In this document: positions 13,707 to 55,669 of the stretch, one piece after another
How the letters are laid out: every line of letters starts with the position of its first letter
Numbering within the stretch: position 1 is the stretch's first letter
NCBI GenBank assembly: GCA_964571545.1
Contig: CAZNCK010000001.1
Span: 8,944 to 65,784, forward strand
DNA: 56,841 nt
Source: an uncultured Treponemataceae bacterium
Lineage (GTDB): Bacteria > Spirochaetota > Spirochaetia > Treponematales > UBA12059
Direction of reading: 5' to 3'
Program-made: the position numbers and the translations under genes
The notes under the pieces: model-generated
The model's input: the letters and a program-made list of their open reading frames with translations, nothing else
Database searches by the model: none
What the model was told of the DNA's origin: nothing

Positions 13707-13753
13707 GGGGACAGACCCCCTAAGTTCGCATCGCGAATTTCAGGGTCTGTCCC
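13707..13753. repeat. Inverted pair of the hyper-abundant motif (hairpin-forming), between rnfB and the RayT-like gene
   Basis: GGGGACAGACCCCC (13707-13720), 22-nt spacer, GGGTCTGTCCC (13743-13753). Confidence 0.85.
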
Positions 13754-18820: not shown

Positions 18821-18851
18821 AACGAACACTTCTCTCTGATAGGAGACCTAT

Positions 18852-25600: not shown

Positions 25601-25752
25601 CAGGAGCGCAGACGCCTGATAGTAGAAGTGGGGATGTCGTGATACACCCGTGTATCCAGTTTGATCTATTCTTGCATGCCATTCTGAAGAAACCTGACCG
25701 GGAGCTAACAACGAAAGCATCATCCCAGAACGACATGCGGAACGGCCTCGTG

Positions 25753-26130
25753 ATGAGCGACGATGCCCTGCTTCTCGTGCGTGACGACGAGCGGATCAGT
25801 GCGGTATACCTGCACGGTAGCCAGGCGCGAGGTGAGGCGCGTTCTGACAGCGATGTTGATCTGGGGATACTTCCGGTTGCCGGTGTGACCTTTACCGATT
25901 ACGAGCGGGCTATGCTCGCGAGCAACCTGGGGCTCCTGCTGCACAAGACCGTGGATGTCGGCGAGGTGTCGTCGAGGAACCTGGTCTATGCCAAAGAGGT
26001 CATATACAAGGGCGTTCCGGTATTCGTCAGGGACGAGGGGTACGCGCGGTTGATGGAGATGACGCTCCTGTCGATGTACGCGTCGTTCAACGAGGACCGT
26101 AAAGAGGTTATAGATGCCTGGACCGCATGA
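25753..26130 (+). CDS. mntA: MNT-type nucleotidyltransferase antitoxin (MntA-like)
   Basis: AVYLHGSQARGEARSDSDVDLGIL is the GSxxxG...DxD minimal NTase motif. Overlaps the downstream DUF86 gene. Alternative ATG at 25735. Confidence 0.8.
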   Translation: MSDDALLLVRDDERISAVYLHGSQARGEARSDSDVDLGILPVAGVTFTDYERAMLASNLGLLLHKTVDVGEVSSRNLVYAKEVIYKGVPVFVRDEGYARLMEMTLLSMYASFNEDRKEVIDAWTA

Positions 26131-26608: not shown

Positions 26609-26959
26609 ATGGTACGAGAAGCTGCACGATTGGCGGACCGCTGGAAAAAAAGCAATAGTGAGGCTGAGAAGAGGCGTGATCGCGCTCAGGATTTTGCCAG
26701 GAAACTGGCAGTACAACTTGGGCTTGCCGACCCCGGCGTCAGAGCCATTCTTGGGTTCGGTTCCACATTTGAGCCATGGCGACAGTACCGGCAAGATTCC
26801 GACATAGATCTGGCCCTGTGCGGTGGCGACTGGGGTTTTCTGTGGTCCTTGATTCCACAGAGCGAATTTTTAGTATCACTGATCGAGCTTGATCTGCAAC
26901 CTGTCGCTTTTGCTGAACAAGTCAAGACGCAAGGGGTACTTCTCTATGAAAAACAGTGA
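26609..26959 (+). CDS. Second MNT-type nucleotidyltransferase
   Basis: ILGFGSTFEPWRQYRQDSDIDLAL is a minimal NTase GS...DxD motif. 116 aa. Confidence 0.7.
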   Translation: MVREAARLADRWKKSNSEAEKRRDRAQDFARKLAVQLGLADPGVRAILGFGSTFEPWRQYRQDSDIDLALCGGDWGFLWSLIPQSEFLVSLIELDLQPVAFAEQVKTQGVLLYEKQ

Positions 26960-27449
26960 CGCGGTACGGCAGTTGCGGGCGGAACTGATGCAGGATTATG
27001 ACTTCATAGTCCTTAATGCGGAAAAGAATGCCATCATGACGAAGCGGATTGCCGTTAGCCAGGACCGGGATGAATTTGCTTATGCCGCGCTCGGGTATAC
27101 GCTGCACAATCTATACAACGCCTTCGAGGGGTATTTTTTCCGCATAGCCAAGTTTTTCGAGAATAATAGTACCGACACTACCTGGCACAAAGCGCTTTTG
27201 GAACGAATGACCCTGAATATAGAGGGCATCAGGCCCGCGTTGCTTGACCACTCCATCAGTCTGCGCATTGAAGAGTTGCTTAAATTCCGGCACGTATACC
27301 GGAATATCTATAAAAGCCCCCTCGTTCCCGCGAAGGTAGATTTTACTAATCTGGCAGCGAACAATCTAGCCGCAGACTTCAACGTCCATCATGAACGGTT
27401 CCTGGGATTCTTGCGTAACCTGATCCAGGAGCTGGATGATAATTCTTGA
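26946..27449 (+). CDS. Putative divergent HEPN-like partner of the second MNT
   Basis: Start MKNSDAV overlaps the upstream stop by 14 nt. All-helical-looking 167 aa with C-terminal IRPALLDH and LLKFRHVYRNIY (R/H-rich HEPN-like region). The assignment is tentative. Confidence 0.4.
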   Translation: MKNSDAVRQLRAELMQDYDFIVLNAEKNAIMTKRIAVSQDRDEFAYAALGYTLHNLYNAFEGYFFRIAKFFENNSTDTTWHKALLERMTLNIEGIRPALLDHSISLRIEELLKFRHVYRNIYKSPLVPAKVDFTNLAANNLAADFNVHHERFLGFLRNLIQELDDNS

Positions 27450-27561: not shown

Positions 27562-28779
27562 ATGCCCTCAATTAAAATTATTGATTTTGGGCCTATAAAG
27601 GCCGGGTACACTCAGTCGGTAGACGGCTTTTTTGATATACCTAGGGTAACGCTGCTTTGCGGTACGCAGGGTTCTGGAAAAAGTTCGGTTGCAAAACTGG
27701 TCTCCGTGTTCAGTTGGCTGGAAAAGGCTCTTTTACGGGGAGACTTTTCGGAGAAAGAACTTAAACAGTATAACCGCTTTGTAAACAAATATTGTTCTTA
27801 TCAGAACATTCAAAACTATTTTTCGGCTTCTACCCGACTTGGGTACAGGGGAAGTGCATACGAGTTCGAGTATAAAGACAAGCGACTCTCGCTCAGGAAA
27901 ATACCGGAAGCCCGATATACACGTCCGAAGATTATGTATATTCCCGCAGAGCGGAATTTCATGAGTGCGGTAGCTGATCCAGAGAAACTGAAAAACCTGC
28001 CCAGCACCCTCTATACCTTGCTCGCAGAGTTTGAGCAGGCTAAACGGAGTCTACAACAAAAAGAAACTAAATTGCCCATCGGAGGGGTATCGTTTGTATA
28101 CGACAAACAAAACAAAATTTCATGGCTTCAGACCAATGACTACAAAATTCGCCTGCAGGAAGCGTCCAGTGGGTTTCAATCAGTTCTTCCCCTGTTTTTA
28201 GTTACCCAATATCTGTCAGACACGATAGGTCAGCCGGACAATCCTTCCCGCAGAACTATAAGCCTTGAAGAATCCCGAAAATTGGCTATTGATCTGGAAA
28301 AAATATTAAAAGATCAGAAACTTGCGCCAGAGGTGAGGGAAACCCTTGTTGCCAGATTGATCGCCGCTTCGGTTAACAGCCGCTTTGTCAACATAGTGGA
28401 AGAGCCAGAACAGAATCTGCATCCAGCCAGCCAGCGATCAATTTTATTTGATTTGTTAACTAACATGAATAAAAACCAGGATAATTCTCTTCTGATGACC
28501 ACGCATAGCCCGTACATGATCAGCTGGCTGACTCTGGCCATTAAAGCTGGCGAACTTGCGGCAACGGTTACCAGACCAGAGGAGTTGGCCCGTATTGTGC
28601 CGCGTGGCGCATGGATATCCTCACAGGAGGTCGCGATCTATCAGCTCTCGGACAAGGGGCAAATCGAGCGCCTGGGCAATTATAAAGGGTTACCCTTGGA
28701 TGAGAACATGCTGAACGCTGAAATCGAAGCCGGAAATGATCTGTTTACGGAGCTTCTTGAGCTGGACGATTCAAAGTGA
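27562..28779 (+). CDS. ABC-type (AAA_15/AAA_21-like) ATPase, candidate defence NTPase
   Basis: Walker A LLCGTQGSGKSS, signature-like QEASSGFQSVLPL, Walker B/D-loop FVNIVEEPEQNLHP, H-loop LMTTHSPYM. No TM segments. Confidence 0.8.
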   Translation: MPSIKIIDFGPIKAGYTQSVDGFFDIPRVTLLCGTQGSGKSSVAKLVSVFSWLEKALLRGDFSEKELKQYNRFVNKYCSYQNIQNYFSASTRLGYRGSAYEFEYKDKRLSLRKIPEARYTRPKIMYIPAERNFMSAVADPEKLKNLPSTLYTLLAEFEQAKRSLQQKETKLPIGGVSFVYDKQNKISWLQTNDYKIRLQEASSGFQSVLPLFLVTQYLSDTIGQPDNPSRRTISLEESRKLAIDLEKILKDQKLAPEVRETLVARLIAASVNSRFVNIVEEPEQNLHPASQRSILFDLLTNMNKNQDNSLLMTTHSPYMISWLTLAIKAGELAATVTRPEELARIVPRGAWISSQEVAIYQLSDKGQIERLGNYKGLPLDENMLNAEIEAGNDLFTELLELDDSK

Positions 28780-29321
28780 TTTCTTTCTTCGACCCGATGT
28801 TCCAGATAGAACAGGCCAGAACAGAAGATGCGTTCGGTATTGTTGACGGAGATGAGCAACACCCCGCGTACACAACGCTTGAAAATAGCGTTGAATGGAC
28901 AGCACAGGTTGAAAACTTGCACAAGGAAGTGGCGCTGTTTATACCGGTAGATAAAAACATGCCACTTCATTCCCCGGACGGTCGTCAATTAAAAACTTGT
29001 GATGGAATGCTGACCCTTCCCAATAAAAAGCAGGACTTGCTGATATTTCTGGAACTCAAAACCGGAAAAACAAGGAATAGAAAAAACTGGATCAATCACG
29101 GTATAGAGCAGTTGGAGAGCACCATTGCTGAATTTCGACGGTACCATGATGACGCTATGCGTGCTGATAAACGAGCGTATGTCTGCAACGGTAAGCGCCC
29201 CATGCAAAGGGAATTTTCGCAGGAACGGGCGCAACGATTTTTTGACAATACCGGCTTTCGATTATATATCGACCATGTCGTACGTATTGTTTCTAGGAAT
29301 GTCCCGAGCCAGATGTCTTGA
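28776..29321 (+). CDS. Small PD-(D/E)xK nuclease-like protein coupled to the ATPase
   Basis: GTG start overlaps the ATPase stop (GTGA). KTCDGMLTLPNKKQDLLIFLELKTGKT is a D...ExK arrangement resembling the RecB-family hhDYKTG strand. Alternative ATG at 28797. Confidence 0.5.
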   Translation: MISFFDPMFQIEQARTEDAFGIVDGDEQHPAYTTLENSVEWTAQVENLHKEVALFIPVDKNMPLHSPDGRQLKTCDGMLTLPNKKQDLLIFLELKTGKTRNRKNWINHGIEQLESTIAEFRRYHDDAMRADKRAYVCNGKRPMQREFSQERAQRFFDNTGFRLYIDHVVRIVSRNVPSQMS

Positions 29322-29359: not shown

Positions 29360-29428
29360 ACGGATTCAATGTGCTAAGGGCATTGGTTTCAACGTGGTAA
29401 CGATACCGGTTTCAACAAGGAACTGGAA
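29360..29428 (+). repeat. Three tandem ~23-nt iteron-like repeats (left set)
   Basis: acggattcaatgtgctaagggca / ttggtttcaacgtggtaacgata / ccggtttcaacaaggaactggaa. Confidence 0.7.
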
Positions 29429-29570
29429 TAGAAAACAAGTCTAGATTGAACCTGGTGGTAGGATAGTCTGAAGAGAGGCGCCCTACCGTTGCGGGGAAGG
29501 GCGCCCGGTAGATTTTTAGATCGTTACGCTACGGAGACTGGGTCGGAGAGCATGGCTTCCTTGATGTCCT
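29408..29570 (+). repeat. 163-nt direct repeat A (left copy), including an orphan copy of the last 47 nt of the 30793-31464 gene
   Basis: Near-identical to 30677-30839, with a handful of substitutions. Contains hairpin GGCGCCC-N15-GGGCGCC. Confidence 0.9.
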
Positions 29571-29578
29571 GCATTCAA

Positions 29579-29690
29579 TTATCCTGTTCATCTTTTCCTT
29601 GATCCTGTACATCCTGTACCCATTTTTGAATAAACCCAAATGTGGACAGGATGTACAGGATGAAGTCGAAGAGATATACAAGATACGGGT
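29579..29690 (+). repeat. Long imperfect palindrome built of ATCCTGT heptads (element B, left copy)
   Basis: ttatcctgttcatcttttccttgatcctgtacatcctgt, ~27-nt loop, acaggatgtacaggatgaagtcgaagagatatacaagat. Same-orientation homolog at 30461-30570. Confidence 0.8.
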
Positions 29691-29825
29691 ATAAAAAGTA
29701 TAAAGAAATTGTGGAGTACGACTGCAGAGCGCCTGTCCTGCTTTCTGTGGGACTTTGGGAGATCACTACGTTCGCTTGCGCTAGGGTGTTGTTGTTAGAA
29801 CGTTGTGTCAGGGAGGAAGCCGTCC

Positions 29826-30026
29826 ATGTTAGTTTCATACTTTGGAACATACGATGATGGGGTTATAAAGCTTTCTGAGAAGCCGGAGGGGATCAGCCAT
29901 GCCCGGGTAATCATCACGCTTATACCTGATGAAGAAGGGAATGAGAACCAGGCCACTATGAAGCTAGCTGAAGCCGTCTTTGACGAATGGGATAACGACG
30001 TGGATTCTGTCTATGATACCTTATAA
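29826..30026 (+). CDS. Antitoxin (DUF104/AF2212-like) of the MazF-type toxin
   Basis: RBS GGGAGGAAG. MLVSYFGTYDDGVIKLSEKPEGISHARVIITLI fits the Y.nGvlkP.e...l.eg..v.i pattern. Overlaps the toxin start. Confidence 0.6.
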   Translation: MLVSYFGTYDDGVIKLSEKPEGISHARVIITLIPDEEGNENQATMKLAEAVFDEWDNDVDSVYDTL

Positions 30027-30354
30027 GCCTTGGGATGTGATTCTTGTTCCATTCCCTTTCACTGACCTGAGTTTGAACAAGCAGCGACCAGCAGTTGTCA
30101 TTTCGTGTAATGATTACAATAAATCTGGCGATCTAATCATAGGATTTCTGACTAGCAACCTACATGGAACTTTGAAATTGGGTGACTATAGGCTTGTTGG
30201 GTACCACCAGGCTGGTCTTCCACTTCCAACAAGGTTCAGGGCTAAGTTTGCAACAATAACAAAAGAGATAGTTGTTCGAAAACTTGGATCCTTGGTAGCA
30301 GTAGATCGGACAGCAGTTTCGGATAGCATTCGCGATGTTTTAGCTATGGTTTGA
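30013..30354 (+). CDS. MazF/PemK-family toxin
   Basis: YKPWDVILVPFPFTDLSLNKQRPAVVIS...FLTSN is the typical PemK/MazF N-terminus. 113 aa. Confidence 0.75.
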   Translation: MIPYKPWDVILVPFPFTDLSLNKQRPAVVISCNDYNKSGDLIIGFLTSNLHGTLKLGDYRLVGYHQAGLPLPTRFRAKFATITKEIVVRKLGSLVAVDRTAVSDSIRDVLAMV

Positions 30355-30460
30355 CTCCCGAATCTCTGAGCCCATATATCGGACCGCATATCCTTGAGGA
30401 AGTCGAGTATTATGCATTCTGACTATGAAATCCTTTACGATAAGTGATCCTGGGTTTTTC

Positions 30461-30570
30461 TTATCCTGTTCATCTCTTTCTTGATCCTGTAAATCCTGTT
30501 GAATCTTACAATACAGTTCAAGAAGAACAGGATATACAGGATGAAGTCGAAGAGATGTACAGGATAAGTC
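30461..30570 (+). repeat. ATCCTGT-heptad palindrome (element B, right copy)
   Basis: ttatcctgttcatctctttcttgatcctgtaaatcctgt ... acaggatatacaggatgaagtcgaagagatgtacaggat. Confidence 0.8.
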
Positions 30571-30605
30571 AGAGAATTTAAGTTTGGGCGTTTCTTATTA
30601 CGATT

Positions 30606-30697
30606 CCAGTTTTAACGTGGTAATGATACCAGTTCCAATGTGGTCACGGTATCGGTTTCAATGTGGTATTGATGTCGGTTTCAACAAGGAACTGGTA
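30606..30697 (+). repeat. Four tandem ~23-nt iteron-like repeats (right set)
   Basis: ccagttttaacgtggtaatgata / ccagttccaatgtggtcacggta / tcggtttcaatgtggtattgatg / tcggtttcaacaaggaactggta. Confidence 0.75.
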
Positions 30698-30839
30698 CCT
30701 AAAACAAGTCTAGATTGAACCTGGTGGTAGGATAGTCTGAAGAGAGGCGCCCGACCGTTGCGGGGAAGGGCGCTCGGTAGATTTTTAGATCGTTACGCTA
30801 CGGAGACTGGGTCGGAGAGCATGGCTTCCTTGATGTCCT
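30677..30839 (+). repeat. 163-nt direct repeat A (right copy): 3' end of the 30793-31464 gene plus its downstream region
   Basis: See 29408-29570. Confidence 0.9.
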
Positions 30840-31464
30840 TCTCGTTTGGCGACGTGCGGACTATCAGGGAGTATTGGCCAGCCCCCAGGTCCGGGGGGAC
30901 CTGGGCAATGACGGTGCCGGGGGTGACGGATGCGTACTGGACGGCGCGGTGTTCCGAGCCGTTCTTGAACCAGACGCCGGTCTCGGGCTGGGTTTTGTTA
31001 AACTTCATGTTGCGTCCATGGATGCGGATGAAGTCTCCCGGTGAGGCGGTGAGTTCCTCGTCGGTGCGGACCGAGTGAGCCGTGTAGAGGCACGGGGCGG
31101 TCTTGTCGATCTGGAATTCGCGCTGGATAAGCGTCTCGTTGACGATTCTGGCTTCTTCTGCCTTGTTTGCCCTGAAATGGAGGCTGACCTTGTGGCCCGT
31201 TTCCTTGGTAGCCGGGTCAAAGGCTTGCCCGGCATAGTCAAACGTACCGGAAGCGCTCAGGTAGAGGGAGAAAAAGGGCAGCTTGATTACGGTGCCGCGG
31301 GACAGTTCACGGGACATCACCTTGAAGAAGGCATTGAGCGCCGCGAGGCAGTCTGCCTCGGAAAGCCCCGTGCCGCCCTCGGTCATGTCCTTGACCAGGT
31401 CTTGCGCATCCCTGGTTTCATCATGGATGGTATGCACGATGAAATGTTTTTTCACCGTTGGCAA
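30793..31464 (-). CDS. HU-like DNA-binding domain protein with C-terminal Ig-like (DUF4469-like) domain
   Basis: N-terminus ...LSEADCLAALNAFFKVMSRELSRGTVIKLPFFSLYLSASGTF is HU/IHF-like. C-terminus PGDFIRIHGRNMKFN...ETGVWF...GQYSLIV resembles DUF4469. Assigned by recall of the family pattern. Confidence 0.5.
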   Translation of the reverse strand: MPTVKKHFIVHTIHDETRDAQDLVKDMTEGGTGLSEADCLAALNAFFKVMSRELSRGTVIKLPFFSLYLSASGTFDYAGQAFDPATKETGHKVSLHFRANKAEEARIVNETLIQREFQIDKTAPCLYTAHSVRTDEELTASPGDFIRIHGRNMKFNKTQPETGVWFKNGSEHRAVQYASVTPGTVIAQVPPDLGAGQYSLIVRTSPNEKDIKEAMLSDPVSVA

Positions 31465-31867: not shown

Positions 31868-33183
31868 TAACAGGATGTCGAAAATGCCTTGTTTTTGGTC
31901 AATGGCTCTGCGTTGGCAATTTTATGATTGCCTTTCAGTAAATATTGTGTAATTTGCCGCAGGGAGGCATTCCTGCATGCGACTGTTAAGATCTTAGCGC
32001 CCATCGGAGCGCTGGAGAATGTCACTGGCATCATGCTTCCGCCTCCATGTTCCGCAGGCGGACTGGGTTGAAGACAGCGAGGCTCATCGGGAAAAGCCAG
32101 TCTATATTTGCTCGCCCTTGTAGCTTGGCTTTTCGTATCAGCCCGACAGTCTTGGCCCACCCAAATATCTCTTCGACAAGATTTCTTTTCCGTTGGCTTG
32201 TCTCGTAGCCTTCGTGTCTTGTTGTCCGGCCGTCTACTGATTTCCCGTTTCTCCTCTGAGAAATAGGTGGTGTGGTTTTCAAGTCGCGCAGGTTTTCAGC
32301 AAACTCACTGGCATCGTAGCTTTTGTCCGCTCCCAGCGTCCGTTTCTTGTTGCCATTCAACCGCAGCGCCATACTGTGTGCAGCATCGCGCTCTGCCGTT
32401 CCGCTTGCCAACGTTACTTCGACATCAACAGCAAGTCCGTTTCGGTTCTCCATGAGCACATGGCCCAGATAGGCGAGTTTTGCCTGAGATCCGCTCGACT
32501 TCTTGTAGAGCCAGGCGTCCTTGTCTGACCGCGACTCATGAGTCGCATTGGATCGTTTCTCTCCATGGAAATCGACTTCGGGATTCCTGCCGCCCGCCTC
32601 CGGAATCTTTTCCAGTAGGATCGATTGTATCCTTCTCCTGAAGCTTTTCATGCTTGCCCAAGCTTCTATACGAGTACCATCTACGGTGAAATGCTCGTCA
32701 GAGAGGAACTTCTTTCGCCGAGTCCCCTCAACTACTTTGATAAAAAACAGTCGCGTGATGCTGGAACCAAGCAAACGGTCACGGTTTTTAATGAATTTTT
32801 AATGTTCCCAGAGGGGCGCATCAATGCTCAACCCGACAAACCACCGGGACAGGATGTTGAAGTCTATCTGTTCCATCAGCTGGCGCTCGCTCCTGACCGA
32901 ACAGAGGATCTGTAGGACCGACGCGCGTAAGAGGCACTCTGGCGCGATCGAAGGACGACCGGAGATTGAGTATATCGAATCGAATTCGGTATCAAGGCTC
33001 TTTAGTATCTCGTCGACCATGATCCGAATTGGCCTGCTTGTGTGTCGGGCTGGAATCCGATCCTTCACATGCTGATGTAACCGAAGGCGTCGATCTGCTT
33101 CTCTTCGATACCGCGCATACGGTCCCCCCGGGGGGATCAGTATGATATAAATTTGTCACTTAACGAATTTCAACAGCCTGTTA
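31868..33183 (-). mobile_element. IS5-family insertion sequence (~1.3 kb)
   Basis: Terminal inverted repeats TAACAGGATGTCGAAAAT (31868-31885) versus the reverse complement of AATTTCAACAGCCTGTTA (33166-33183), 15/18 matching. Encloses a DDE transposase reading frame. Confidence 0.65.
32031..33068 (-). pseudogene. IS5-family (DUF772 + DDE) transposase interrupted by one in-frame TAA
   Basis: ORFs 32799-33068 (...LSRWFVGLSIDAPLWEH*) and 32031-32795 (KFIKNRDRLLGSS...) are in the same frame, separated only by a TAA at 32796-32798. Together ~345 codons. Confidence 0.75.
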
Positions 33184-48108: not shown

Positions 48109-49302
48109 TTGATGGATTCCATACTTTCACTTATCGGCCGCAGTACCCCCCTTCTAGCTCAGGATCTCGCTACCAATTCCAGTATACTTGGAGATATCGT
48201 CTCTGCTTCCCGCTTCCTCGTCATCGGCGGCGCCGGATCCATCGGCCAGGCTGTAACCCGCGAGATATTCAAGCGCAATCCTCGCCTTCTCCATGTCGTC
48301 GATATATCAGAGAACAACACGGTGGAACTGGTGCGCGATCTGCGCAGTTCCATAGGCTATTCAGATGGCGAGTTTGCCACCTTCGCGATAGACGCGGGCA
48401 GCGACATCTTCGATGCCTTCATGGAACATGGCCCCGGGTACGACTATGTGCTCAACCTCTCGGCGCTCAAGCACGTGCGCAGCGAGAGGGACCCGTACAC
48501 GCTGATGCGCATGATCGATGTCAATGTATTCAACACTGATAAAACCATGCGGCAGGCCAAGTCCAAGGGAGCAAAGAAGTATTTCTGCGTGTCCACTGAC
48601 AAGGCCGCCAACCCCGTCAACATGATGGGGGCCAGCAAACGCATCATGGAGATGTTCCTGATGCGCCGCAGCCTTGAAATGCCCGTTTCCACCGCCCGCT
48701 TTGCCAACGTGGCCTTCTCAGACGGCAGCCTCCTCTATGGCTTCAACCGCCGCATGGAGAAGGACCAACCGCTCGCCGCGCCTAACGACGTGCGCCGCTA
48801 CTTCGTTACCCCCCAGGAATCAGGTGAACTGTGCCTCTGCTCCTGCCTCCTGGGCGACAACAGGGATGTCTTCTTTCCCAAGCTCGACCAGGGCCTGAAC
48901 CTCATCACCTTCAGCCAGATAGCGGAACGCTACCTGGAACGCGCGGGCTACGAATCCGTCCACTGCGCCAGCGAGGACGAGGCCCGCGCCCGCGTGGCCG
49001 AACTCAAGCCCCAGCGCAAGTGGCCCGTATACTTCTTCAGTAGCGACACCACCGGAGAGAAGGACTTTGAGGAGTTCTACACAGACAACGAGACCCTGGA
49101 TATGGCCCGCTTCAAGAACCTCGGCATAATCAAGAACCAACCGGATTACGACGAGGCCAAGCTGGCCCATTTTGAGTCACGCATCAAAGAGCTGCGCGCC
49201 CGGGGCACCTGGAGCCGCACCGACCTCATAGACCTCTTCAACACCATGATTCCCGAGTTTAACCACAAGGAAACAGGCAAGTTTCTGGACGGAAGGATGT
49301 AG
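48109..49302 (+). CDS. CapD/PglF/WbpM-family NDP-sugar 4,6-dehydratase (soluble form), full-length copy
   Basis: RFLVIGGAGSIGQAVTREI...LHVVDISENN...LSALKHVRSE...FCVSTDKAANPVNMMGASKRIME...ARFANVAFSDGS. 397 aa. Confidence 0.88.
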   Translation: MMDSILSLIGRSTPLLAQDLATNSSILGDIVSASRFLVIGGAGSIGQAVTREIFKRNPRLLHVVDISENNTVELVRDLRSSIGYSDGEFATFAIDAGSDIFDAFMEHGPGYDYVLNLSALKHVRSERDPYTLMRMIDVNVFNTDKTMRQAKSKGAKKYFCVSTDKAANPVNMMGASKRIMEMFLMRRSLEMPVSTARFANVAFSDGSLLYGFNRRMEKDQPLAAPNDVRRYFVTPQESGELCLCSCLLGDNRDVFFPKLDQGLNLITFSQIAERYLERAGYESVHCASEDEARARVAELKPQRKWPVYFFSSDTTGEKDFEEFYTDNETLDMARFKNLGIIKNQPDYDEAKLAHFESRIKELRARGTWSRTDLIDLFNTMIPEFNHKETGKFLDGRM

Positions 49303-49368
49303 CGACTTAACACTACTTTCACGGAAATCCAAGTTGTAAGAGCAGATAATCTGTAGTATTGTTGGTTT

Positions 49369-50097
49369 ATGAGCAATTCTCTGCCAGTTTCTATAAGCCC
49401 GTGTCCTATTCAGGAAGCTGTCGTTGAAATCAGATTTTCTACAGCCATACCTCCAGATGCGGTTTTTGGAATTTTGTACGCAAAAGTAAAACAGAAATTT
49501 AACACAACAAATGCCCTGCCTATTCTACAGATTCCAGAGGCTATACGCTCCCAGGACCCAAATCTGACGTATCAACCTCATTATATGCTGAGCAATGGCA
49601 ATCTCAACCTGAAAATTGGCCCGAAAGTTCTTGGATTCAGCTGTGTAGCCCCGTATGTAGGATGGGAGCACTATTTTTCTTTTGTCAAAGAAATTATTGA
49701 AGCAACCAGGGATACTGGAGTAATGGAAAGGCCAGAACGGCTTGGTCTACGGTACATCAATTATTTCCCCATGCCGGTTCTCGATGTTCTTGACCTTGGC
49801 ATACAATTCGGGGCAATGCAGGTATCTCAAGAGCCAACCTATCTCCGTACTGAGTTCAAGCATGACGATTTTGATAAAATCGTAAGCATTACCAACAATA
49901 TGTCCATAACATTGCCTGGTAAAACCGAGCTTGGGTCACTACTTGACATAGACTGCGTGCATACGTTCTCTCAGGACGCTGGTAGTTTTTACACTACGCA
50001 TGATCATATCATCAACCAGGGCCACGAAATAGAGAAGCAAACTTTTTTTAAGATGCTTAAACCGGATTTTTTGGCAACACTGGATCCAAAATATTGA
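49369..50097 (+). CDS. Uncharacterised protein, TIGR04255-like
   Basis: N-terminal PIQEAVVEIRF and central RLGLRYINYF match my recollection of the TIGR04255 family pattern. 242 aa, AT-rich cassette. Confidence 0.55.
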   Translation: MSNSLPVSISPCPIQEAVVEIRFSTAIPPDAVFGILYAKVKQKFNTTNALPILQIPEAIRSQDPNLTYQPHYMLSNGNLNLKIGPKVLGFSCVAPYVGWEHYFSFVKEIIEATRDTGVMERPERLGLRYINYFPMPVLDVLDLGIQFGAMQVSQEPTYLRTEFKHDDFDKIVSITNNMSITLPGKTELGSLLDIDCVHTFSQDAGSFYTTHDHIINQGHEIEKQTFFKMLKPDFLATLDPKY

Positions 50098-50106
50098 GGT
50101 AAAACC

Positions 50107-50421
50107 ATGTATGAAACAAATTCAACCATCAAAATTAATTCTGTGATGGCGACAGCGAGTGCGGTTGCCATGACCCTTGCCGTCATGGGAAGTTTTCCTG
50201 CTCTGCCCCGGAGGGAGTATTGTTTGCCAAAAATTGAAGCGGTCTTGTCCAGAGATTTGGTACGAACATTGGAAACAATGAATATAGCCTGTGTTGTACA
50301 AACTCCTCAGGAAAAGATGGATGTAATTAGTAGATTCGTCGGGATCATGGTATCAGAATCCAGAGATCTTGAACCAGAAGTGAGGTCTATAGTCCAAAGC
50401 AACTTCTGGGATCTTATCTGA
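50107..50421 (+). CDS. Hypothetical small protein (hydrophobic N-terminal segment)
   Basis: 104 aa, starts 10 nt after the upstream gene stop. MATASAVAMTLAVMGSFPALP hydrophobic stretch. No recognisable motif. Confidence 0.45.
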   Translation: MYETNSTIKINSVMATASAVAMTLAVMGSFPALPRREYCLPKIEAVLSRDLVRTLETMNIACVVQTPQEKMDVISRFVGIMVSESRDLEPEVRSIVQSNFWDLI

Positions 50422-50423
50422 AA

Positions 50424-51041
50424 ATGTCGGAATTTGAAAATTTCTCGCTGTTTTTACCCAGATATCTGAGTCCAGATACAGAGAATACATTGTTGGCTGA
50501 CCTCAAAGACTTTCCCGGCAATATTGATAAGAGAATGTATGGTTTTTATGGCAAATCAGACACCGTAATCTATCAGGGAGATGGACTGAAAGGATTGCCC
50601 TATATCAACTTTCCGGAGCCAAGAATAGAGTCCTTGTCTTGTCTGGTACTCTCCAATACTTGCGATGTAGACCCCTCAAATCAGCGAAAATTCGGCTCCT
50701 CCATCGTATATTCACCTGTGATTGCACTGGAAAAATATGAGAAACTCCTATTAGATAAAGGAATATTTTCTTCAGTTGCTCTGCAGGCACACGTGGGCGC
50801 CATACGAAGACAGGAAATTACCCAGATATTTTATTTACCTTCTTACTCTACTGATCTACCAGAGTCGATAGTTTTTCTTGATCGTCTCTGTCATTGTGAT
50901 TCAACCTTCGTCCTTCGCGATGAATTATCCACCAGGCGGTTGTTTTCCTTGTCTCAATATGGATTGTACCTGTTTCTCTATAAACTTTCGATACACTTCA
51001 CCCGGTTCCATGAAAAAATCGACAGAACGTATAGACAATAA
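50424..51041 (+). CDS. Hypothetical protein (205 aa), third gene of the cassette
   Basis: Starts 3 nt after the previous stop. No recognisable catalytic motif. Conserved-looking block YQGDGLKGLPYINFPEP...LVLSNTCDVDP. Confidence 0.5.
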   Translation: MSEFENFSLFLPRYLSPDTENTLLADLKDFPGNIDKRMYGFYGKSDTVIYQGDGLKGLPYINFPEPRIESLSCLVLSNTCDVDPSNQRKFGSSIVYSPVIALEKYEKLLLDKGIFSSVALQAHVGAIRRQEITQIFYLPSYSTDLPESIVFLDRLCHCDSTFVLRDELSTRRLFSLSQYGLYLFLYKLSIHFTRFHEKIDRTYRQ

Positions 51042-51076
51042 CTGTCGAGAATTACCAGAAGAGGGTAACAATTTTT

Positions 51077-51125
51077 CGCGTGAGGGAGCGTAGAGCCCGC
51101 CCCGACCGCAGGTCGGGGCACGCCC
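51077..51125 (+). repeat. Structured repeat family, copy 2 (short form)
   Basis: CGCGTGAGGGAGCGTAGAGCCCG-CCCCGACC-GCA-GGTCGGGG-CACGCCC, with a perfect 8-bp stem. Confidence 0.75.
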
Positions 51126-51143
51126 ATTACTGAACAGTGTAAC

Positions 51144-51671
51144 GTCTTCAACACTGACGTGCGCCGCTACTTCGTTACCCCCCAGGAATCAGGTGAACTG
51201 TGCCTCTGCTCCTGCCTCCTGGGCGACAACAGGGATGTCTTCTTTCCCAAGCTCGACCAGGGCCTGAACCTCATCACCTTCAGCCAGATAGCGGAACGCT
51301 ACCTGGAACGCGCGGGCTACGAATCCGTCCACTGCGCCAGCGAGGACGAGGCCCGCGCCCGCGTGGCCGAACTCAAGCCCCAGCGCAAGTGGCCCGTATA
51401 CTTCTTCAGTAGCGACACCACCGGAGAGAAGGACTTTGAGGAGTTCTACACAGACAACGAGACCCTGGATATGGCCCGCTTCAAGAACCTCGGCATAATC
51501 AAGAACGAACCAGACTACGACCAGGCCAAGCTGGCCCATTTCGAGTCCCGTATCCGGCAGCTGCGCGCCCAGGGTACCTGGAGCCGCACCGACCTCATAG
51601 ACCTGTTCAACACCATGATCCCCGAGTTTAACCACAAGGAAACAGGCAAGTTTTTGGACGGGAGGATGTAG
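51144..51671 (+). pseudogene. CapD-like gene fragment R1 (C-terminal ~170 codons, 5'-truncated, internal deletion)
   Basis: ORF 51159-51671 is identical at the protein level to 48790-49128 of the full gene, then diverges (EPDYDQ...RIRQLRAQ versus QPDYDE...RIKELRAR). The junction GTCTTCAACACTGAC|GTGCGCCGC fuses two distant parts of the gene. Confidence 0.9.
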
Positions 51672-51813
51672 CAGGCCTATTCATCCGCTTATTCAGCAGA
51701 ATATGCGCTAAACTATTCCTGTCTTCCAGTTTTGCGTATATTTTATGTAGTTTAATGTCCATAAACTACGCGGTACATGGTTTGGTGGATGGAAACACTA
51801 CAAGGAGCTCATT

Positions 51814-52020
51814 ATGGTGGCAGTAGAATTTGAAGCCAATGTTGAAGGTGGGATGATAAAAATCCCTCGAAAATATACTCAACTCGAGAACAAACACATG
51901 AAGGTACTTCTATTCGAGACTGGTGCACACAACCAACCCTTGCCTGAATCTTTTTTTGAACCAATCATCATCTCTTCATACAGCCTGATTGCTACACGGG
52001 ATGAAATCTATGAACGGTGA
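51814..52020 (+). CDS. AbrB/SpoVT-like antitoxin (VapB-type)
   Basis: 68 aa, GGMIKIPRKY...ATRDEIYER*. The stop overlaps the PIN gene ATG. Confidence 0.6.
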   Translation: MVAVEFEANVEGGMIKIPRKYTQLENKHMKVLLFETGAHNQPLPESFFEPIIISSYSLIATRDEIYER

Positions 52021-52452
52021 TGTCTTTGTAGACACGAATATATTCCTGTATGCACTGACGATACCAGATTCTCCTCTTCTTCGGATCTTGAAAAGCATGA
52101 AAAAGCACAGGAATTCTTCAAGACTACAATTTTGGATGCTGAATCCCTTGTAACATCCGTCCAGATAATAAATGAAGTTCACTTCAACTTGATAAGGAAA
52201 TTTCATATTGGCGACCCAGTAGCCTTTGAATTGGTAAAGACGAGGATTGTCAGCAATTTTGAAGTACTCCCGGTCAGTATTTCCGCATGGTACAAATCGA
52301 TTGAGCTTCGTTCCAGATACAGCCTGTCATATTGGGATTCGATCATGGTTTCATCCGCTATTGAAAGAAGTTGTTCATTTCTGGTGACCGAAGACTTGCA
52401 GGATGGACTTGTCATAAACAAAGAGTTGCGCATATTAAACCCGCTTACCTGA
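52010..52452 (+). pseudogene. PIN-domain (VapC) toxin gene with an apparent frameshift
   Basis: N-terminus MNGDVFVDTNIFLYAL is in the frame of 52010 (stops at 52153). The rest (EKAQEFFKTTILDAESLVTSVQIINEV...YWDSIMVSSAIE...LVTEDLQDG) is in a different frame, open from 52021. The shift lies within ~52060-52100. Confidence 0.7.
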
Positions 52453-52465
52453 GTTGTATGCATTC

Positions 52466-52551
52466 CGCGTGAGGGATCGTAGCGTAAAGCCCGCAGCGCA
52501 GCGAGGACTTGAAGCGAAGAGCCCGACCCGACCGCAGGTCGGGGCACGCCC
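52466..52551 (+). repeat. Structured repeat family, copy 3 (long form)
   Basis: CGCGTGAGGGATCGTAGCGTAAAGCCCGCAGCGCAGCGAGGACTTGAAGCGAAGAGCCCGA-CCCGACC-GCA-GGTCGGG-GCACGCCC. Confidence 0.75.
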
Positions 52552-52562
52552 TAATCCGCCTA

Positions 52563-53046
52563 CGACTGCGTGTCTACTGACAAGGCCGCCAACCCCGTCA
52601 ACATGATGGGGGCCAGCAAACGCATCATGGAGATGTTCCTGATGCGCCGCAGCCTTGAAATGCCCGTTTCCACCGCCCGCTTTGCCAACGTGGCCTTCTC
52701 AGACGGCAGCCTCCTCTATGGCTTTAACCGCCGCATGGAGAAGGACCAACCGCTCGCCGCGCCTAATGACGTGCGCCGCTACTTCGTTACCCCCCAGGAA
52801 TCAGGCGAACTGTGCCTCTGCTCCTGCCTCCTGGGCAACAACCGTGACGTCTTCTTTCCCAAGCTCGGCATAACCAAGAACGAACCAGACTACGATCAGG
52901 CCAAGCTGGCCCATATCGAGTCCCGTATCCGGCAACTGCGCGCGCGCGGCACCTGGAGCCGCACCGACCTCATAGACCTGTTCAACACCATGATCCCTGA
53001 GTTTAACCACAGGGAAACCGGCAAGTTTTTGGATGGGAGGATGTGA
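52563..53046 (+). pseudogene. CapD-like gene fragment R2 (158 codons, 5'-truncated, in-frame internal deletion)
   Basis: STDKAANPVNMMGASKRIME...RDVFFPKL|GITKNEPDYDQ...GKFLDGRM. About 83 codons are missing relative to the full copy, at a CTCG microhomology. Confidence 0.9.
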
Positions 53047-53080
53047 TCATGGTAAGAAAGCACGATCCTGAAGAATTATT

Positions 53081-53404
53081 ATGAGCAAAATACTTATAGA
53101 TGTTCTTCGGTTAATTCAACTCAACGAGCTTAGAATTTCCGATCACGGATATGATGAGCTTGCTGAAGATGGTATTTTCGTAAAAGATATACTTGTATCC
53201 ATTGCGGATGCTATAGTTGTTGAGGAATACCCGGAGTACCCTAAAGGGCCGTGTGTACTTGTCCTGCAGAAGGTTAGAAATGGCGATTCAATCCACGCCG
53301 TATGGGGTATCCCTAAAGGAATGTCTTCACCGGCCGTTCTGATTACTGCGTATAGACCGGATCCATCGCGGTGGGAAGACGGTTTTATGAGGAGAAAGAA
53401 ATGA
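53081..53404 (+). CDS. DUF4258-like toxin
   Basis: ISDHGYDELAEDGIFVKDILVSIADAIVVEEYPEYPKGPCVLVL...IHAVWG fits the DUF4258 pattern. ATGA overlap with the next gene. Confidence 0.55.
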   Translation: MSKILIDVLRLIQLNELRISDHGYDELAEDGIFVKDILVSIADAIVVEEYPEYPKGPCVLVLQKVRNGDSIHAVWGIPKGMSSPAVLITAYRPDPSRWEDGFMRRKK

Positions 53405-53616
53405 ACACCAGGAACTTCACAAAGATGATCCATGAAGGTGATTTTGTAGCAGAAGTTGATGTTGCTTTGATCTATACGGAAGAAGGATGGGCTCCATACC
53501 TTTCATTACAGGATGCGTACAAACTCGATGATGTTCGAGAAGCACTGAGACAGGGCGACATAAAGGCTGCAACACAACTCTCTCGAGTATACACCTTGAC
53601 CAGAATTGCTGGTTAA
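53401..53616 (+). CDS. Putative cognate antitoxin (71 aa)
   Basis: Translationally coupled to the DUF4258-like gene. No motif recognised. Confidence 0.4.
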   Translation: MNTRNFTKMIHEGDFVAEVDVALIYTEEGWAPYLSLQDAYKLDDVREALRQGDIKAATQLSRVYTLTRIAG

Positions 53617-53621
53617 AGAAG

Positions 53622-53675
53622 ATCCCCGAGTTCAACTACAAGAAAACAGGAAAGTTTTTGGACGGGAGAATGTAG
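53622..53675 (+). repeat. CapD 3'-end remnant R3
   Basis: ATCCCCGAGTTCAACTACAAGAAAACAGGAAAGTTTTTGGACGGGAGAATGTAG (IPEFNYKKTGKFLDGRM*). Confidence 0.85.
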
Positions 53676-53782
53676 CAGGCCATATGCTTTACCAACTTTG
53701 TCAAGCTCATAGACAAACTAAATCATTGTGAATATAGTAATACTAACACCCTACTGAGTAGGGTGATGCTACTGGAGTATAT

Positions 53783-54121
53783 ATGAAACGTCTTTTCATT
53801 CAAACCAATGAGTTCCAAGCATGTTGGAAAGAACTTGGGATGACTGAAGACGATTTACGGCAATTTCAGGAACATCTTCTGGAGTGTCCAGAGGCTGGGC
53901 CTGTTATTCAGGGTACTGGCGGTGTTAGAAAAGTGCGGTGGGCACGCCAGGGGAAAGGAAAGTCAGGTGGTCTCCGTATTATTTATATTGACATCCGCAA
54001 TCGGGAGACGATCTGGCTAATTACAGCATTTGGCAAAAACGAACAAGATAGCTTGAGTTCTGCAGAGAAAAAACATATTAAGGAGTTTGTTAAATCCTTG
54101 TATGGTGAGGAGGAGCAATGA
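53783..54121 (+). CDS. RelE/HigB-type toxin (DUF1044-like)
   Basis: GTGGVRKVRWARQGKGKSGGLRIIYIDIRNRETIWLITAFGKNEQDSL is the typical toxin pattern. Toxin precedes antitoxin (HigBA order). Confidence 0.65.
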   Translation: MKRLFIQTNEFQACWKELGMTEDDLRQFQEHLLECPEAGPVIQGTGGVRKVRWARQGKGKSGGLRIIYIDIRNRETIWLITAFGKNEQDSLSSAEKKHIKEFVKSLYGEEEQ

Positions 54122-54435
54122 GTAAAGCGTATGCAAGTATCATGAAAGGGCTTGTAGAAATAAAAGCCCACAATGAGGGGAAACTGCAACTGAAGACTTC
54201 AACCCTGGAAATAAAACCCCCACCGAGATGTGACGATACTGTTGTCAAGAACCTTCGTGCGGATCTTAGGCTTTCACAATCGGCTTTTGCCACGGTTATG
54301 GGAGTTTCCAAAAAAACCGTGGAAGCATGGGAATCGGCTCGAAACGTACCCAGTGGTAGTTCCTGCCGCCTTATCGAGGTCATCAGCAAAGATACATCCA
54401 TACTGGAACGGGAAAACATAGTAATTTCGTCGTGA
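54118..54435 (+). CDS. XRE-family HTH antitoxin (HigA/MqsA-like)
   Basis: VKNLRADLRLSQSAFATVMGVSKKTVEAWESARNVPSGSSCRLI is an XRE HTH. 4-nt overlap with the toxin. Confidence 0.7.
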   Translation: MSKAYASIMKGLVEIKAHNEGKLQLKTSTLEIKPPPRCDDTVVKNLRADLRLSQSAFATVMGVSKKTVEAWESARNVPSGSSCRLIEVISKDTSILERENIVISS

Positions 54436-54450
54436 TATCGATCCAAGACC

Positions 54451-54506
54451 CCCCGAATCAAGCCACAAGCAAGGAAACGGGCAAGTTTCTGGACGGGAGG
54501 ATGTAG
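54451..54506 (+). repeat. CapD 3'-end remnant R4
   Basis: CCCCGAATCAAGCCACAAGCAAGGAAACGGGCAAGTTTCTGGACGGGAGGATGTAG. Confidence 0.8.
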
Positions 54507-54636
54507 CAGTCCTTCGAGAGCAAGACCCATGGTTTGAGTGGTGTTGTACAAGAGCAAGATTTATGGTTTCTGCTGTGCCAAGCTTTACATGTAGAATCAA
54601 GATGAGGAAACGAAATACTATTTTAAAGGTTTTAGC

Positions 54637-54714
54637 ATGAATTTTGAATGGGATCCGGCAAAAGCTGAAATAAATCGGTCTAAACACGATGTCAGCTTTG
54701 AAGACGGGAGATAG
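54637..54714 (+). pseudogene. BrnT (DUF497) toxin remnant, 25 codons
   Basis: MNFEWDPAKAEINRSKHDVSFEDGR* is the canonical BrnT N-terminus but truncated (family members are ~90 aa). Confidence 0.65.
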
Positions 54715-54718
54715 TGTT

Positions 54719-54931
54719 ATGAGTGATATGCTGGATGAATATGACTTTTCCAAGGCTGAACGCGGCAAGTTCTACATTCCACAAGAAGAAATACGATTGC
54801 CTCACTATTTGCCGCCATCTCTGGAGCAGAAGTTGGCATTGCTGTCCAAAACGAGCGGGAAAAGCCGTGATGCCTTGATCAATATGGTTCTTGAGAATGA
54901 ATTGGACCTTCTTCTGACGGTAGCAAACTAA
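54719..54931 (+). CDS. BrnA-like (RHH/CopG) antitoxin, now orphan
   Basis: MSDMLDEYDFSKAERGKFY...LEQKLALLSKTSGKSRDALINMVLE is a BrnA-like N-terminus with a C-terminal RHH-like segment. Confidence 0.55.
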   Translation: MSDMLDEYDFSKAERGKFYIPQEEIRLPHYLPPSLEQKLALLSKTSGKSRDALINMVLENELDLLLTVAN

Positions 54932-55001
54932 CCTGTTCAACACCATGATCCCCGGGTTCAACCACAAGTACACAGGCAAGTTTTTAGACGGGAGAATGTA
55001 A
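54932..55001 (+). repeat. CapD 3'-end remnant R5, abutting the phosphoglycosyl transferase start
   Basis: CCTGTTCAACACCATGATCCCCGGGTTCAACCACAAGTACACAGGCAAGTTTTTAGACGGGAGAATGTAA. Its TAA overlaps the ATG at 55001 (TAATG). Confidence 0.85.
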
Positions 55002-55669
55002 TGATGACCAGACTGTTCGATATCCTGTTCTCGCTTATGGCGATGGTACTGCTTCTGCCCTTCATGCTGCCCGTCATGATAGCCCTCAAGCTTTCAGGCG
55101 AGCACTACATCTTCTACCGCCAAAGCCGGGTCGGCATCCATGGCCGGGACTTTGACCTCTTCAAATTCGCCACCATGCTCCTGGATTCACCCAACCTGCC
55201 TGGTGGACTATATACAGACAAGAACGACCCCCGCATGCTGCCCATGGGCCGCTTCCTCCGCAAGACAAAGATCAACGAGCTACCCCAGCTTATCAACATC
55301 TTTGTGGGGCAGATGAGCATCGTCGGCTTTCGCCCCACCGTTCGCCAGCACTTTGAAGGCTATCCGGCCTACGCCAAGGAAAAGCTCTACAACGCCGCCC
55401 CAGGCCTCACCGGCATCGGCTCCGTAGTATTCAGGAACGAAGAAGAAATCCTGCAGAACTTTGCGGATAAAAAGGCCTTCCACCAGAACGTCATAGCGCC
55501 CTACAAGGCCGCCCTGGAATGCTGGTATGTGGACCACGCGGGGCTGTTCAACTACTTCAAACTCATACTGCTGACCGTCGTCTCGGTCCTGAACCCTGCT
55601 TCCTCAGCCTGGAAGACCTGGTTCAAGGATTTGCCCCCTGTACCCCCGGAACTGGAGCCGTACATCTAG
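55001..55669 (+). CDS. Small monotopic phosphoglycosyl transferase (PglC/WbaP C-terminal domain family), initiating enzyme
   Basis: RLFDILFSLMAMVLLLPFMLPVMIALKL...YRQSRVG..G..F.LFKFATM...DPRMLPMGRFLRKTKINELPQLINIFVGQMSIVGFRP. Confidence 0.9.
   Translation: MMTRLFDILFSLMAMVLLLPFMLPVMIALKLSGEHYIFYRQSRVGIHGRDFDLFKFATMLLDSPNLPGGLYTDKNDPRMLPMGRFLRKTKINELPQLINIFVGQMSIVGFRPTVRQHFEGYPAYAKEKLYNAAPGLTGIGSVVFRNEEEILQNFADKKAFHQNVIAPYKAALECWYVDHAGLFNYFKLILLTVVSVLNPASSAWKTWFKDLPPVPPELEPYI

Follow-up and report, generated by a model that had tools for sequence, protein, structure and literature searches.

The stretch of 56,841 nucleotides (nt) analysed here, hereafter the window, comes from an uncultured Treponemataceae bacterium (GenBank assembly GCA_964571545.1, contig CAZNCK010000001.1, positions 8,944 to 65,784 of the forward strand). 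It carries a gene for a predicted NDP-sugar 4,6-dehydratase and a gene for a phosphoglycosyl (bacterial sugar) transferase, and between the two an array of five small gene cassettes, each followed by a displaced copy of the 3ʹ end of the dehydratase gene (Table 1). We conclude that this array is a genuine, evolving stack of small toxin-antitoxin (TA) and defence-type cassettes. The predicted dehydratase belongs to the CapD/PglF/FlaA1 family, as judged by its Polysacc_synt_2 domain and the STDKA ... MGASKR motif in its translation. Homologues of the gene (capD below) occur in many phyla at 66–81% identity, the closest being in metagenome-assembled genomes of Spirochaetota.

Table 1. Features of the array, of related arrays in other contigs and of further gene-tail repeats. 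Positions are those of the window unless a contig (L number) is named.
Feature	Location	Strand	Description
Dehydratase gene, CapD/PglF/FlaA1-like, intact	48109–49302	+	397-amino-acid (aa) open reading frame (ORF); Pfam Polysacc_synt_2, 5e-39
R0	final ~30–70 nt of the intact gene		tail 49138–49302 ~10% diverged from R1
Cassette 1	49303–51073	+	three co-directional genes: 49369–50097 (TIGR04255), 50107–50421 and 50424–51041 (no family)
X1	51074–51125	+	shortened copy of element X (CGCGTGAGGG...CCCCGACCGCAGGTCGGGGCACGCCC), then 30-nt filler with capD-like NVFNTD piece, 51141–51158
R1	51156–51671	+	displaced copy of the last 517 nt; 170-codon ORF
Cassette 2	51672–52461	+	VapB-like gene 51814–52020 and PIN (VapC) gene
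X2	52462–52551	+	full element X; Rfam RF01705, 29.4 bits; 86–88% match to Bacteroides/Phocaeicola conjugative plasmids
R2	52566–53046	+	displaced copy of gene 48585–49302, in-frame 237-nt internal deletion; 158-codon ORF
Cassette 3	53047–53620	+	DUF4258 toxin-like gene 53081–53404 (Pfam 6.8e-17) and 71-aa partner 53401–53616
R3	53621–53681	+	56-nt tail copy (repeat part 53621–53675) plus CAGGCC
Cassette 4	53682–54446	+	RelE/HigB-like toxin 53783–54121 and HTH (HigA/MqsA-like) antitoxin 54118–54435
R4	54447–54528	+	degenerate tail copy plus 22-nt post-stop block CAGTCCTTCGAGAGCAAGACCC
Cassette 5	54529–54930	+	BrnT remnant 54637–54714 (25 codons) and BrnA/RelB-like gene 54689–54931
R5	54931–55001	+	70-nt tail copy; ancestral Shine-Dalgarno sequence and TAATG overlap retained
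Phosphoglycosyl transferase gene	55001–55669	+	Pfam Bac_transf, 2.1e-47
Transferase tail copies	L001 6546–6587 (window 55628–55669) and 7955–7996 (just past window end)		MNT/HepT pair follows
GDP-mannose 4,6-dehydratase (gmd) tail copies	L108 5957–5991, 9202–9236, 9835–9869		between DUF4258 pair, SecB-like, AAA_21/RloB and YoeB pair
Element P	29579–29685, 30460–30568; L102 3486–3596; L103 51–160, 1255–1358; L111 ~3598–3625 (fragment)		107-nt palindromic element
Related array	L099		tail / AbiEi/AbiEii / X / gene fragment from ~48657 / cassette 1-like / ~40-nt stub / VapB
Related array, first part	L104 + L102		full gene / 22-nt block / VapBC-like / partial X / 37-nt internal gene piece / intact BrnT/BrnA
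Related array, continuing	L104 + L102		gene piece / X / DUF3990 pair / ~110-nt stub / cassette 4 without higB / R4 / 22-nt block / 107-nt palindromic miniature inverted-repeat transposable element (MITE)
Related array	L105		wzz-like gene end / ~90-nt stub / cassette 3-like
Related array, first part	L111/L112		IS66 / vapC-end remnant / X / undeleted R2 counterpart (92% aa identity) / cassette 3-like
Related array, continuing	L111/L112		MITE fragment / ~100-nt stub with 33-nt deletion / MNT/HEPN / X / gene fragment from residue 311
Related array	L101		484-aa gene / 75-nt stub / flank that in L100 follows intact gene

A repeat search recovered a family of six 61-nt copies, whose starts lie 2369, 1375, 629, 831 and 495 nt apart. 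Its 39-nt core has three sites at ≤3 mismatches, against none expected in shuffled sequence. With extents set by local alignment to the intact gene, the final 38–517 nt recur five further times, ending at 51671, 53046, 53675, 54506 and 55001, which confirms the six copies that a previous reading of this DNA from its letters (the sequence-only reading) had reported. R1 (51156–51672, corresponding to gene positions 48787–49303) is identical to R0 over its initial 351 nt and then differs at 17 of 166 nt. R2 joins 52566–52867 (gene 48585–48886) to 52861–53044 (gene 49117–49300); its identity to R0 is 97% in the upstream part and falls to 86% in the tail. The left part of R3 is decayed (H to Y, E to K) and its last 10 codons are clean; R4 is clean over 38 nt (54470–54506), with degenerate homology from ~54447. 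The repeats have a G+C content of ~60%, and the intervals of ~41%.

The last copy, R5, was taken by the sequence-only reading for the ancestral junction of the two genes, and other genomes bear this out. In many of them the transferase gene starts 0–5 nt from the dehydratase stop codon or overlaps it, as at R5, where the TAA overlaps the ATG of the Bac_transf gene. The Shine-Dalgarno sequence of the transferase gene (GGGAG) sits within the final codons of the dehydratase gene. Since the two genes are adjacent in other genomes, the array has been inserted between genes that are normally coupled. No comparable array was found in 80 species-representative genomes that carry the dehydratase gene.

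Where did the displaced copies come from? Divergence among the tails of R0, R1 and R2 is 7–14%, with ratios of non-synonymous to synonymous substitution (dN/dS) of 0.09–0.18. Across the last ten codons (TGKFLDGRM and stop), the six copies show at least 10 changes, including three different stop codons, and 10/10 are synonymous; the synonymous share of possible changes in these codons is 19% (P ~6e-8). Because these changes are all synonymous, the copies trace to separate alleles that were functional, rather than to local duplication followed by decay, in line with the earlier suggestion that they were imported. A second suggestion, that they form a reservoir of alternative C-termini, fails: every copy encodes the same end. 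For this reason, we also rejected a diversity-generating retroelement and gene conversion towards alternative C-termini.

The copies are also mosaics. For eight displaced copies from five contigs, we compared novel codons in the last 10 codons with those upstream. The ratio of synonymous to non-synonymous novel codons was 7:0 in the last ten codons and 7:26 upstream, stops included (Fisher P = 1.8e-4). The transition from clean to decayed sequence falls at −30 to −36 nt from the stop codon in five of the eight, and at about −45, −63 and −81 in the other three. To judge from the codons, uniform decay after a single duplication cannot yield a clean end beside a decayed left part. The pattern is expected if the right part alone of a carried copy periodically becomes coding, and it lends support to the idea, put forward in the sequence-only reading, that every cassette brings a copy of the target end with it: displaced copies consist of an old, decayed left part and a clean last 30 nt. 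The identity of R0 and R1 over 351 nt, followed by 10% divergence, fits a crossover near 49137 with a close donor bearing another tail.

Related arrays were found by scanning metagenome contigs with a degenerate core and by inspecting the genes around DUF4258 homologues. The target 3ʹ end flanks the units as direct repeats (six copies here, more in L099, L101–L105, L111 and L112). L099 keeps cassettes 1 and 2 in order, with an additional AbiE cassette upstream; its copy of cassette 1 is 76% identical to ours. Cassette 4 is preceded here by cassette 3 and a 56-nt repeat, and in L102, where it is 96.8% identical with higB deleted, by a DUF3990 pair and a ~110-nt repeat. Relatives of cassette 3 at 78–82% likewise lie downstream of capD tails in L105, L111 and L112: after a ~90-nt stub behind a wzz-like gene in L105, and after an undeleted long fragment in L111, which carries an X-to-gene junction homologous to X2–R2 without the 237-nt deletion. 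The leader of cassette 5 directly follows a full-length gene in L104. Since the same right-hand cassette is found behind varied left partners and stub lengths, the array is not fixed and identical but polymorphic between related populations, and the core sequence marks cassette boundaries in other contigs as well; a fixed array and a core without cassette boundaries, which the sequence-only reading had named as refuting its model, are thus both absent.

Could the array be an assembly artefact, with repeats mis-joined or expanded in metagenome assembly? The order from 49083 to the window end is reproduced at 99.96–100% identity in ENA, Logan and JGI contigs (groundwater metagenomes, at least three runs or samples), and cassettes 2–5, with R2–R5 and the transferase gene, are contiguous in at least four independent assemblies from at least three runs. 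The R3–R5 repeats are shorter than one read, cassette 1 is chromosomal between different flanks in L099, and related arrays are present in unrelated samples. We therefore regard an artefact as very improbable for the array. Some observations do point that way. Contigs of other assemblies break within repeats (L001 starts at 49083, L106 at 49051, and L002 and L003 inside R1). The window differs from three independent assemblies at just three positions (51398, 52620 and 52674), all within R1 or R2, and at each it carries the R0 base; R1 and R2 have thus likely been made somewhat more similar to R0, by assembly, mapping or polishing or by genuine gene conversion. With an exact repeat of 351 nt, the assembly graph would be equally consistent with cassette 1 as a 2369-bp circle. 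None of the independent contigs crosses the 351 nt common to R0 and R1 from unique 5ʹ gene sequence into the R0 tail, so the placement of cassette 1 depends on this window's assembly and no other.

We assigned the cassette contents with Pfam and NCBIfam. These searches uphold the modules named in the sequence-only reading, with three corrections: the first gene of cassette 1 is a TIGR04255 member, the PIN gene is frameshifted, and the BrnA label is weak. Adjacent small toxin and antitoxin genes with recognised domains, as in type II TA systems, are represented by PIN, DUF4258, RelE with HTH_3, and the BrnT remnant. Cassette 1 (G+C ~41%) has no TA signature and only the TIGR04255 match. In cassette 2, the PIN gene is split into frames at 52010.. 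and 52132–52452, and identical frameshifted calls occur in other assemblies. Cassette 4 has a promoter-like site and a palindrome at 53710–53765. The BrnT remnant matches Pfam BrnT_toxin at 8.9e-5, and the label of its partner is weak because the match is a weak RelB-like one. PADLOC gave no match for the proteins of cassettes 1 and 3, and a promoter and terminator scan performed at chance level. Cargo in related arrays includes AbiEi/AbiEii, BrnT, PIN, Gp49 and MNT/HEPN. A phage search gave no match, nor did a viral-contig search with the repeat core and element X (described below); a plasmid search matched solely capD homologues and X.

The eroded state of this cargo raises the possibility that larger capD-carrying elements (plasmids, islands or foreign glycan segments) integrated here and decayed to TA pairs and stubs, in which case the cassettes were never mobile units themselves. 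Such a history would account for the long fragments with internal deletions (R2, and R1 with its NVFNTD piece), the tail-less internal gene pieces in L102, the truncated, frameshifted or deleted toxins (BrnT, PIN, and higB in L102) and the IS66 and MITE insertions in L111, L102 and L103; plasmid-borne capD homologues do exist. We nonetheless consider it unlikely. Uniform decay does not predict that the left parts of the short copies are far more decayed than the last 30 nt, the same small cassettes occur with different partners in several lineages, and no remnants of a replication, transfer or integrase backbone are present in any array.

The same architecture is found at other gene tails. In L108, from another organism, the last 35 nt of a gmd gene recur perfectly (35/35) after a block of TA and defence genes, and a third copy follows a YoeB pair (final 27 nt, with 2 differences, both synonymous); both displaced copies are then followed by GGTAGC. 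The last 42 nt of the transferase gene itself recur at 31/42 after an AAA_14/DUF4143 ATPase gene, 1.4 kb downstream, against a maximum of 28/42 in 200 shuffles. Elsewhere in the window (29367–30839), a MazE/MazF (PemK) pair at 29805–30354 is bracketed by a 204-nt direct repeat (92% identity), which comprises the 3ʹ end, terminator hairpin and downstream flank of a minus-strand HU/DUF4469 gene at 30793–31464. Inside this repeat, the pair is bracketed again by two copies of a 107-nt palindromic element. Because the architecture recurs at several gene tails, a mechanism tied to one sequence is unlikely.

This palindromic element, which we call P, is MITE-like: a near-perfect palindrome with 18-bp terminal inverted repeats (CTTATCCTGT(T/A)CATCTCT) and DNA fold z-scores of −7 to −9.5. 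In related arrays it repeatedly lies within ~50 nt of capD tail stubs.

A further recurring component is element X, which spans CGCGTGAGGG to GGGGCACGCCC, measures 57 nt in X1 and ~90–105 nt in other copies, and adopts a closed fold of two hairpins; in X2 the terminal stem is GCGTG/CACGC. All seven array copies (7/7) have one orientation, each with the final gene of a cassette on one side (six different cassettes are involved) and a gene fragment on the other. The ends of X are precise, 3–14 nt of filler precede the fragment, and the gene breakpoints are of five kinds. The short stubs, by contrast, lack X and abut the last stop codon of the cassette (0–35 nt). Since X is at the joins of cassettes to long fragments and at none of the short stubs, it is tied to primary joins; a breakage hotspot, a recombination site and an RNA 3ʹ end are candidate roles. 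The sequence-only reading saw no attC-type site in the array. This stands for the repeat itself, which has no fold; the structured, 57–105-nt, Flavo-1-like element at the junctions with long fragments had been missed.

Flavo-1 (RF01705) matches X with 29.4 bits in the window (52462–52532) and 30.6 bits in L099, scores that do not reach the gathering score of 42 bits. The two resemble each other in sequence and in a long imperfect hairpin with AGCG-containing loops; X differs by its extra GC hairpin and, in arrays, by its restriction to cassette/gene-fragment junctions. In Flavobacterium, Flavo-1 matches occur in either orientation, within or outside transcripts (PMC9723704; PMC2864571). In this they resemble a dispersed DNA repeat, which is a further likeness. 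X-like elements at 80–90% identity are present in 34 Bacteroides/Phocaeicola plasmids, and 30 of the 36 matching records are typed as conjugative. In the one plasmid inspected, from Bacteroides xylanisolvens (NZ_CP041231.1; L097 4001–4065), X lies in an unannotated spacer, 12 nt past the stop codon of a gene for a 198-aa serine recombinase. The window has another weak Flavo-1-like match at 25511–25593.

Two mobile-element origins were considered and rejected. X does not belong to the window's IS200-like Y1 transposase (13791–14282), whose gene is flanked by another repeat, GGGACAGACCC. This transposase gene adjoins tRNA-Gly and is preceded (13708–13753) by a GGGACAGACCC...GGGTCTGTCCC hairpin, a motif found at least five more times in the window (17381, 21036, 21692, 22942 and 23643); transposase and motif look like a pair of repetitive extragenic palindrome and associated tyrosine transposase (REP/RAYT), unrelated to X. 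An IS200/IS605-like or rolling-circle origin of the cassettes is contradicted by left ends that are not conserved, and by a flank past X that is the upstream part of the gene and not a continuation of the target.

There may also be a dedicated, unrecognised system that captures cassettes where conserved genes for glycan biosynthesis end, across several phyla, integron-like but lacking IntI and attC. We think this rather improbable. One version has a recombinase that may act in trans on two substrates, X and a ~50-bp site around the stop codon (with GGAAAC-N6-GTTTCY at −34 to −17). In the other version, the units, whose 3ʹ end is fixed at X and whose 5ʹ ends are variably truncated within the gene, may be copies of operon transcripts, similar to complementary DNA, that re-enter by recombination.

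How, then, did the array grow? We propose serial, homology-driven “tail displacement”, the best-supported reading and one to which we give an even chance of being right. A cassette with the gene on its left and a tail stub on its right would move between related genomes, and the tail copy it carries would recombine with the resident functional tail. The exchange would be RecA-type homologous recombination, with one crossover if the incoming DNA is a circle and two if it is linear DNA acquired from a relative. The incoming copy to the right of the crossover would become the new end of the working gene, and the old gene end would shift downstream with the older cassettes, leaving the newest cassette, probably, beside the gene. 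An element-encoded recombinase would be unnecessary. Sequence to the right of the crossover would repeatedly come under coding selection, and the left part never would. Cassettes would first become joined to gene fragments in illegitimate events, often at the structured X; later deletions would cut long fragments to ~40–110-nt stubs, with insertion sequence (IS) elements and MITEs also eroding the stack. Addictive TA pairs would outlast this erosion and hence accumulate.

Several points weigh against tail displacement. Homology of 30–50 nt is near the lower limit for RecA-dependent exchange. The evidence comes throughout from metagenome assemblies, and these contain neither an empty site or alternative junction in the same population nor circles. 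Plain illegitimate recombination does not predict the regularity with which X occupies cassette/fragment junctions. In addition, the block kept past the stop codon, 6–22 nt for capD and 8 nt for gmd, resembles a ~50-bp att site centred on the stop, and the clean zone of five of the eight copies ends at exactly −30 to −36 nt, beside the imperfect palindrome GGAAAC-AGGCAA-GTTTCY, where it could mark the fixed crossover of a site-specific enzyme.

If so, the cassettes would be cis-mobilisable elements without an integrase, with a ~50-bp att-like site over the stop codon (~−30 to +6 or +22) on which a tyrosine or serine recombinase would act in trans, its gene lying elsewhere in the genome or on a helper element. 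The array would then have arisen by tandem accretion, as at tRNA and tmRNA genes. We regard this as possible but not probable. It conforms to classic attL/attR logic, with direct repeats of the target 3ʹ end and a carried copy that restores the gene. A minimal ~30-nt block and post-stop extension are found in all copies and in the gmd array, and the sharp boundary at about −30 adjoins the palindrome. Prophages e14 and 21 in icd likewise supply a replacement 3ʹ end. The genomic islands at ssrA in Dehalococcoides form tandem arrays, and some of these islands lack integration modules (PMC3146451). Our array shares with such tandem islands, and with the accretion of integrative and conjugative or mobilisable elements, the direct repeats of the target 3ʹ end between imported units, the working gene end supplied by the incoming unit, which displaces the old one, and units without integration genes. 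It differs in the small size of the units (0.5–2.4 kb), in the absence of an integrase from every unit and contig, in a repeat of ~40 to 730 nt with variable boundaries, and in its target, the tail of a protein-coding glycan gene, with other tails used too.

The boundaries and the search for an enzyme argue against the recombinase. No recombinase domain was found in array ORFs, array contigs or the window genes scanned by Pfam, in which the only mobile-element enzymes were the IS200-like Y1 transposase and IS5 fragments. The left end of the repeat differs in each copy (about −40, −56, −58, −70, −75, −90, −96, −110, −517 and −730 nt from the stop). Right ends vary as well: 0 nt after the stop in R0, R2 and R5, 6–8 nt (CAGGCC) in R1, R3 and L102, and 22 nt (CAGGCCTTCGAGAGCAAGACCC) in R4, L104, L102 and L103. 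The GTAGCAG(G/T)CC that the sequence-only reading saw after R1, R3 and R4 is indeed there, extended in related contigs to the 22-nt block; the precise site-specific event it also entertained is not borne out by these ends. The central 6 nt of the palindrome vary among copies (AGGCAA, CGGCAA, AGGAAA, GGGCAA), which is unfavourable for strand exchange by a tyrosine recombinase, and the unrelated tails of gmd, the transferase gene and the HU-like gene would demand several specificities. Folding the repeat copies as DNA, on both strands, gave z-scores of −1.4 to +1.6 with no conserved hairpin and no inverted repeat, on which grounds an attC-like fold was rejected. A dif-like 11-6-11 site, the 28-bp XerC-spacer-XerD arrangement of Xer/dif, integrative mobile elements exploiting Xer (IMEX) and pdif modules, was not apparent in the repeat by eye, which is a lead at most. 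The variable boundaries on both sides fit homology-driven exchange with illegitimate joins better than a fixed crossover, and the longer, variable clean zones and the variable central hexamer likewise fit homologous recombination better.

Tail displacement has partial parallels in described systems. In Rhs and CdiA loci, modules enter via a conserved part of the gene, and displaced ends accumulate downstream with variable homology to the main gene. The displaced modules here similarly retain homology to the 3ʹ part of the main gene, but the C-terminus is constant, the cargo consists of separate genes past the stop codon, and the enzyme is not diversified. Displacement of Rhs/CdiA C-termini, with arrays that differ between strains, is attributed to Jackson et al. 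2009 as cited in PMC3150448. Like integrons and clusters of attC sites lacking integrases (CALIN), among them the TA cassettes of the Vibrio superintegron, the array is ordered, mostly co-directional and TA-rich, with a recurring repeat of ~60 nt and the newest cassette probably beside the platform. Unlike them, it has as its repeat a native gene end without an attC fold (RYYYAAC ... GTTRRRY), no IntI among the scanned genes, cassettes that are gene pairs with their own control regions, and a structured element, X, at only some cassette ends. Homology-facilitated illegitimate recombination at the flanks of glycan loci imports DNA through one conserved anchor and a short or non-homologous join. 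To our knowledge, it has not been described as making ordered, repeat-delimited stacks of TA cassettes; here, unlike in plain homology-facilitated import, a second, portable homology arm would be provided by the tail copy that the cassette carries.

Other rearrangements involve the same dehydratase gene. In a Spirochaetia genome (L027 5061–6214), a DegT aminotransferase gene and an internally deleted capD, its first ~20 codons fused to its last ~35, are duplicated downstream of the intact pair, a rearrangement of a different type. In a gut Bacteroidales-like contig (L008 10001–10882), a 293-aa ORF has a HipA_N-like N-terminus fused to the final ~170 codons of a capD homologue, a truncated copy that starts near the R1 breakpoint; the ORF directly follows a UpxY-like (NusG-family) gene, with DUF2971, IS and TA genes beside it. 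Many other “truncated” homologues, of 150–294 aa and matched by the R1 ORF, resembled widespread gene fragments but were rejected, being either frameshifted long-read contigs (L006, L007 and L014) or genes cut by contig ends (L095 and L096).

Elsewhere among the glycan genes of the window lie further TA and defence modules: an MNT (Polbeta) and HepT pair (25594–26130, 26889–27449) and a candidate PDC-M29 A/B defence pair (27562–29321; PADLOC 2e-151 and 1e-40). Fragments of an IS5-family transposase are present at 32031–33068. The window begins with dnaN and recF (1260–3504), followed later by yidC/jag (16955–19577), which places the glycan locus and its arrays near the replication origin region.

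What is the significance of such an array? Up to 5.7 kb of it separates two genes that are normally translationally coupled, and glycan expression should be affected. An orphan Flavo-1-like motif gains a concrete genomic context at cassette ends. If tail displacement is correct, the end of a conserved gene would serve as a portable homology arm, with which TA and defence cassettes could spread and stack without integrase, transposase or attC. This would explain why TA modules pepper surface-glycan loci and would add an integrase-free route to defence and TA islands, and the displaced gene ends would constitute a readable fossil record of successive imports.

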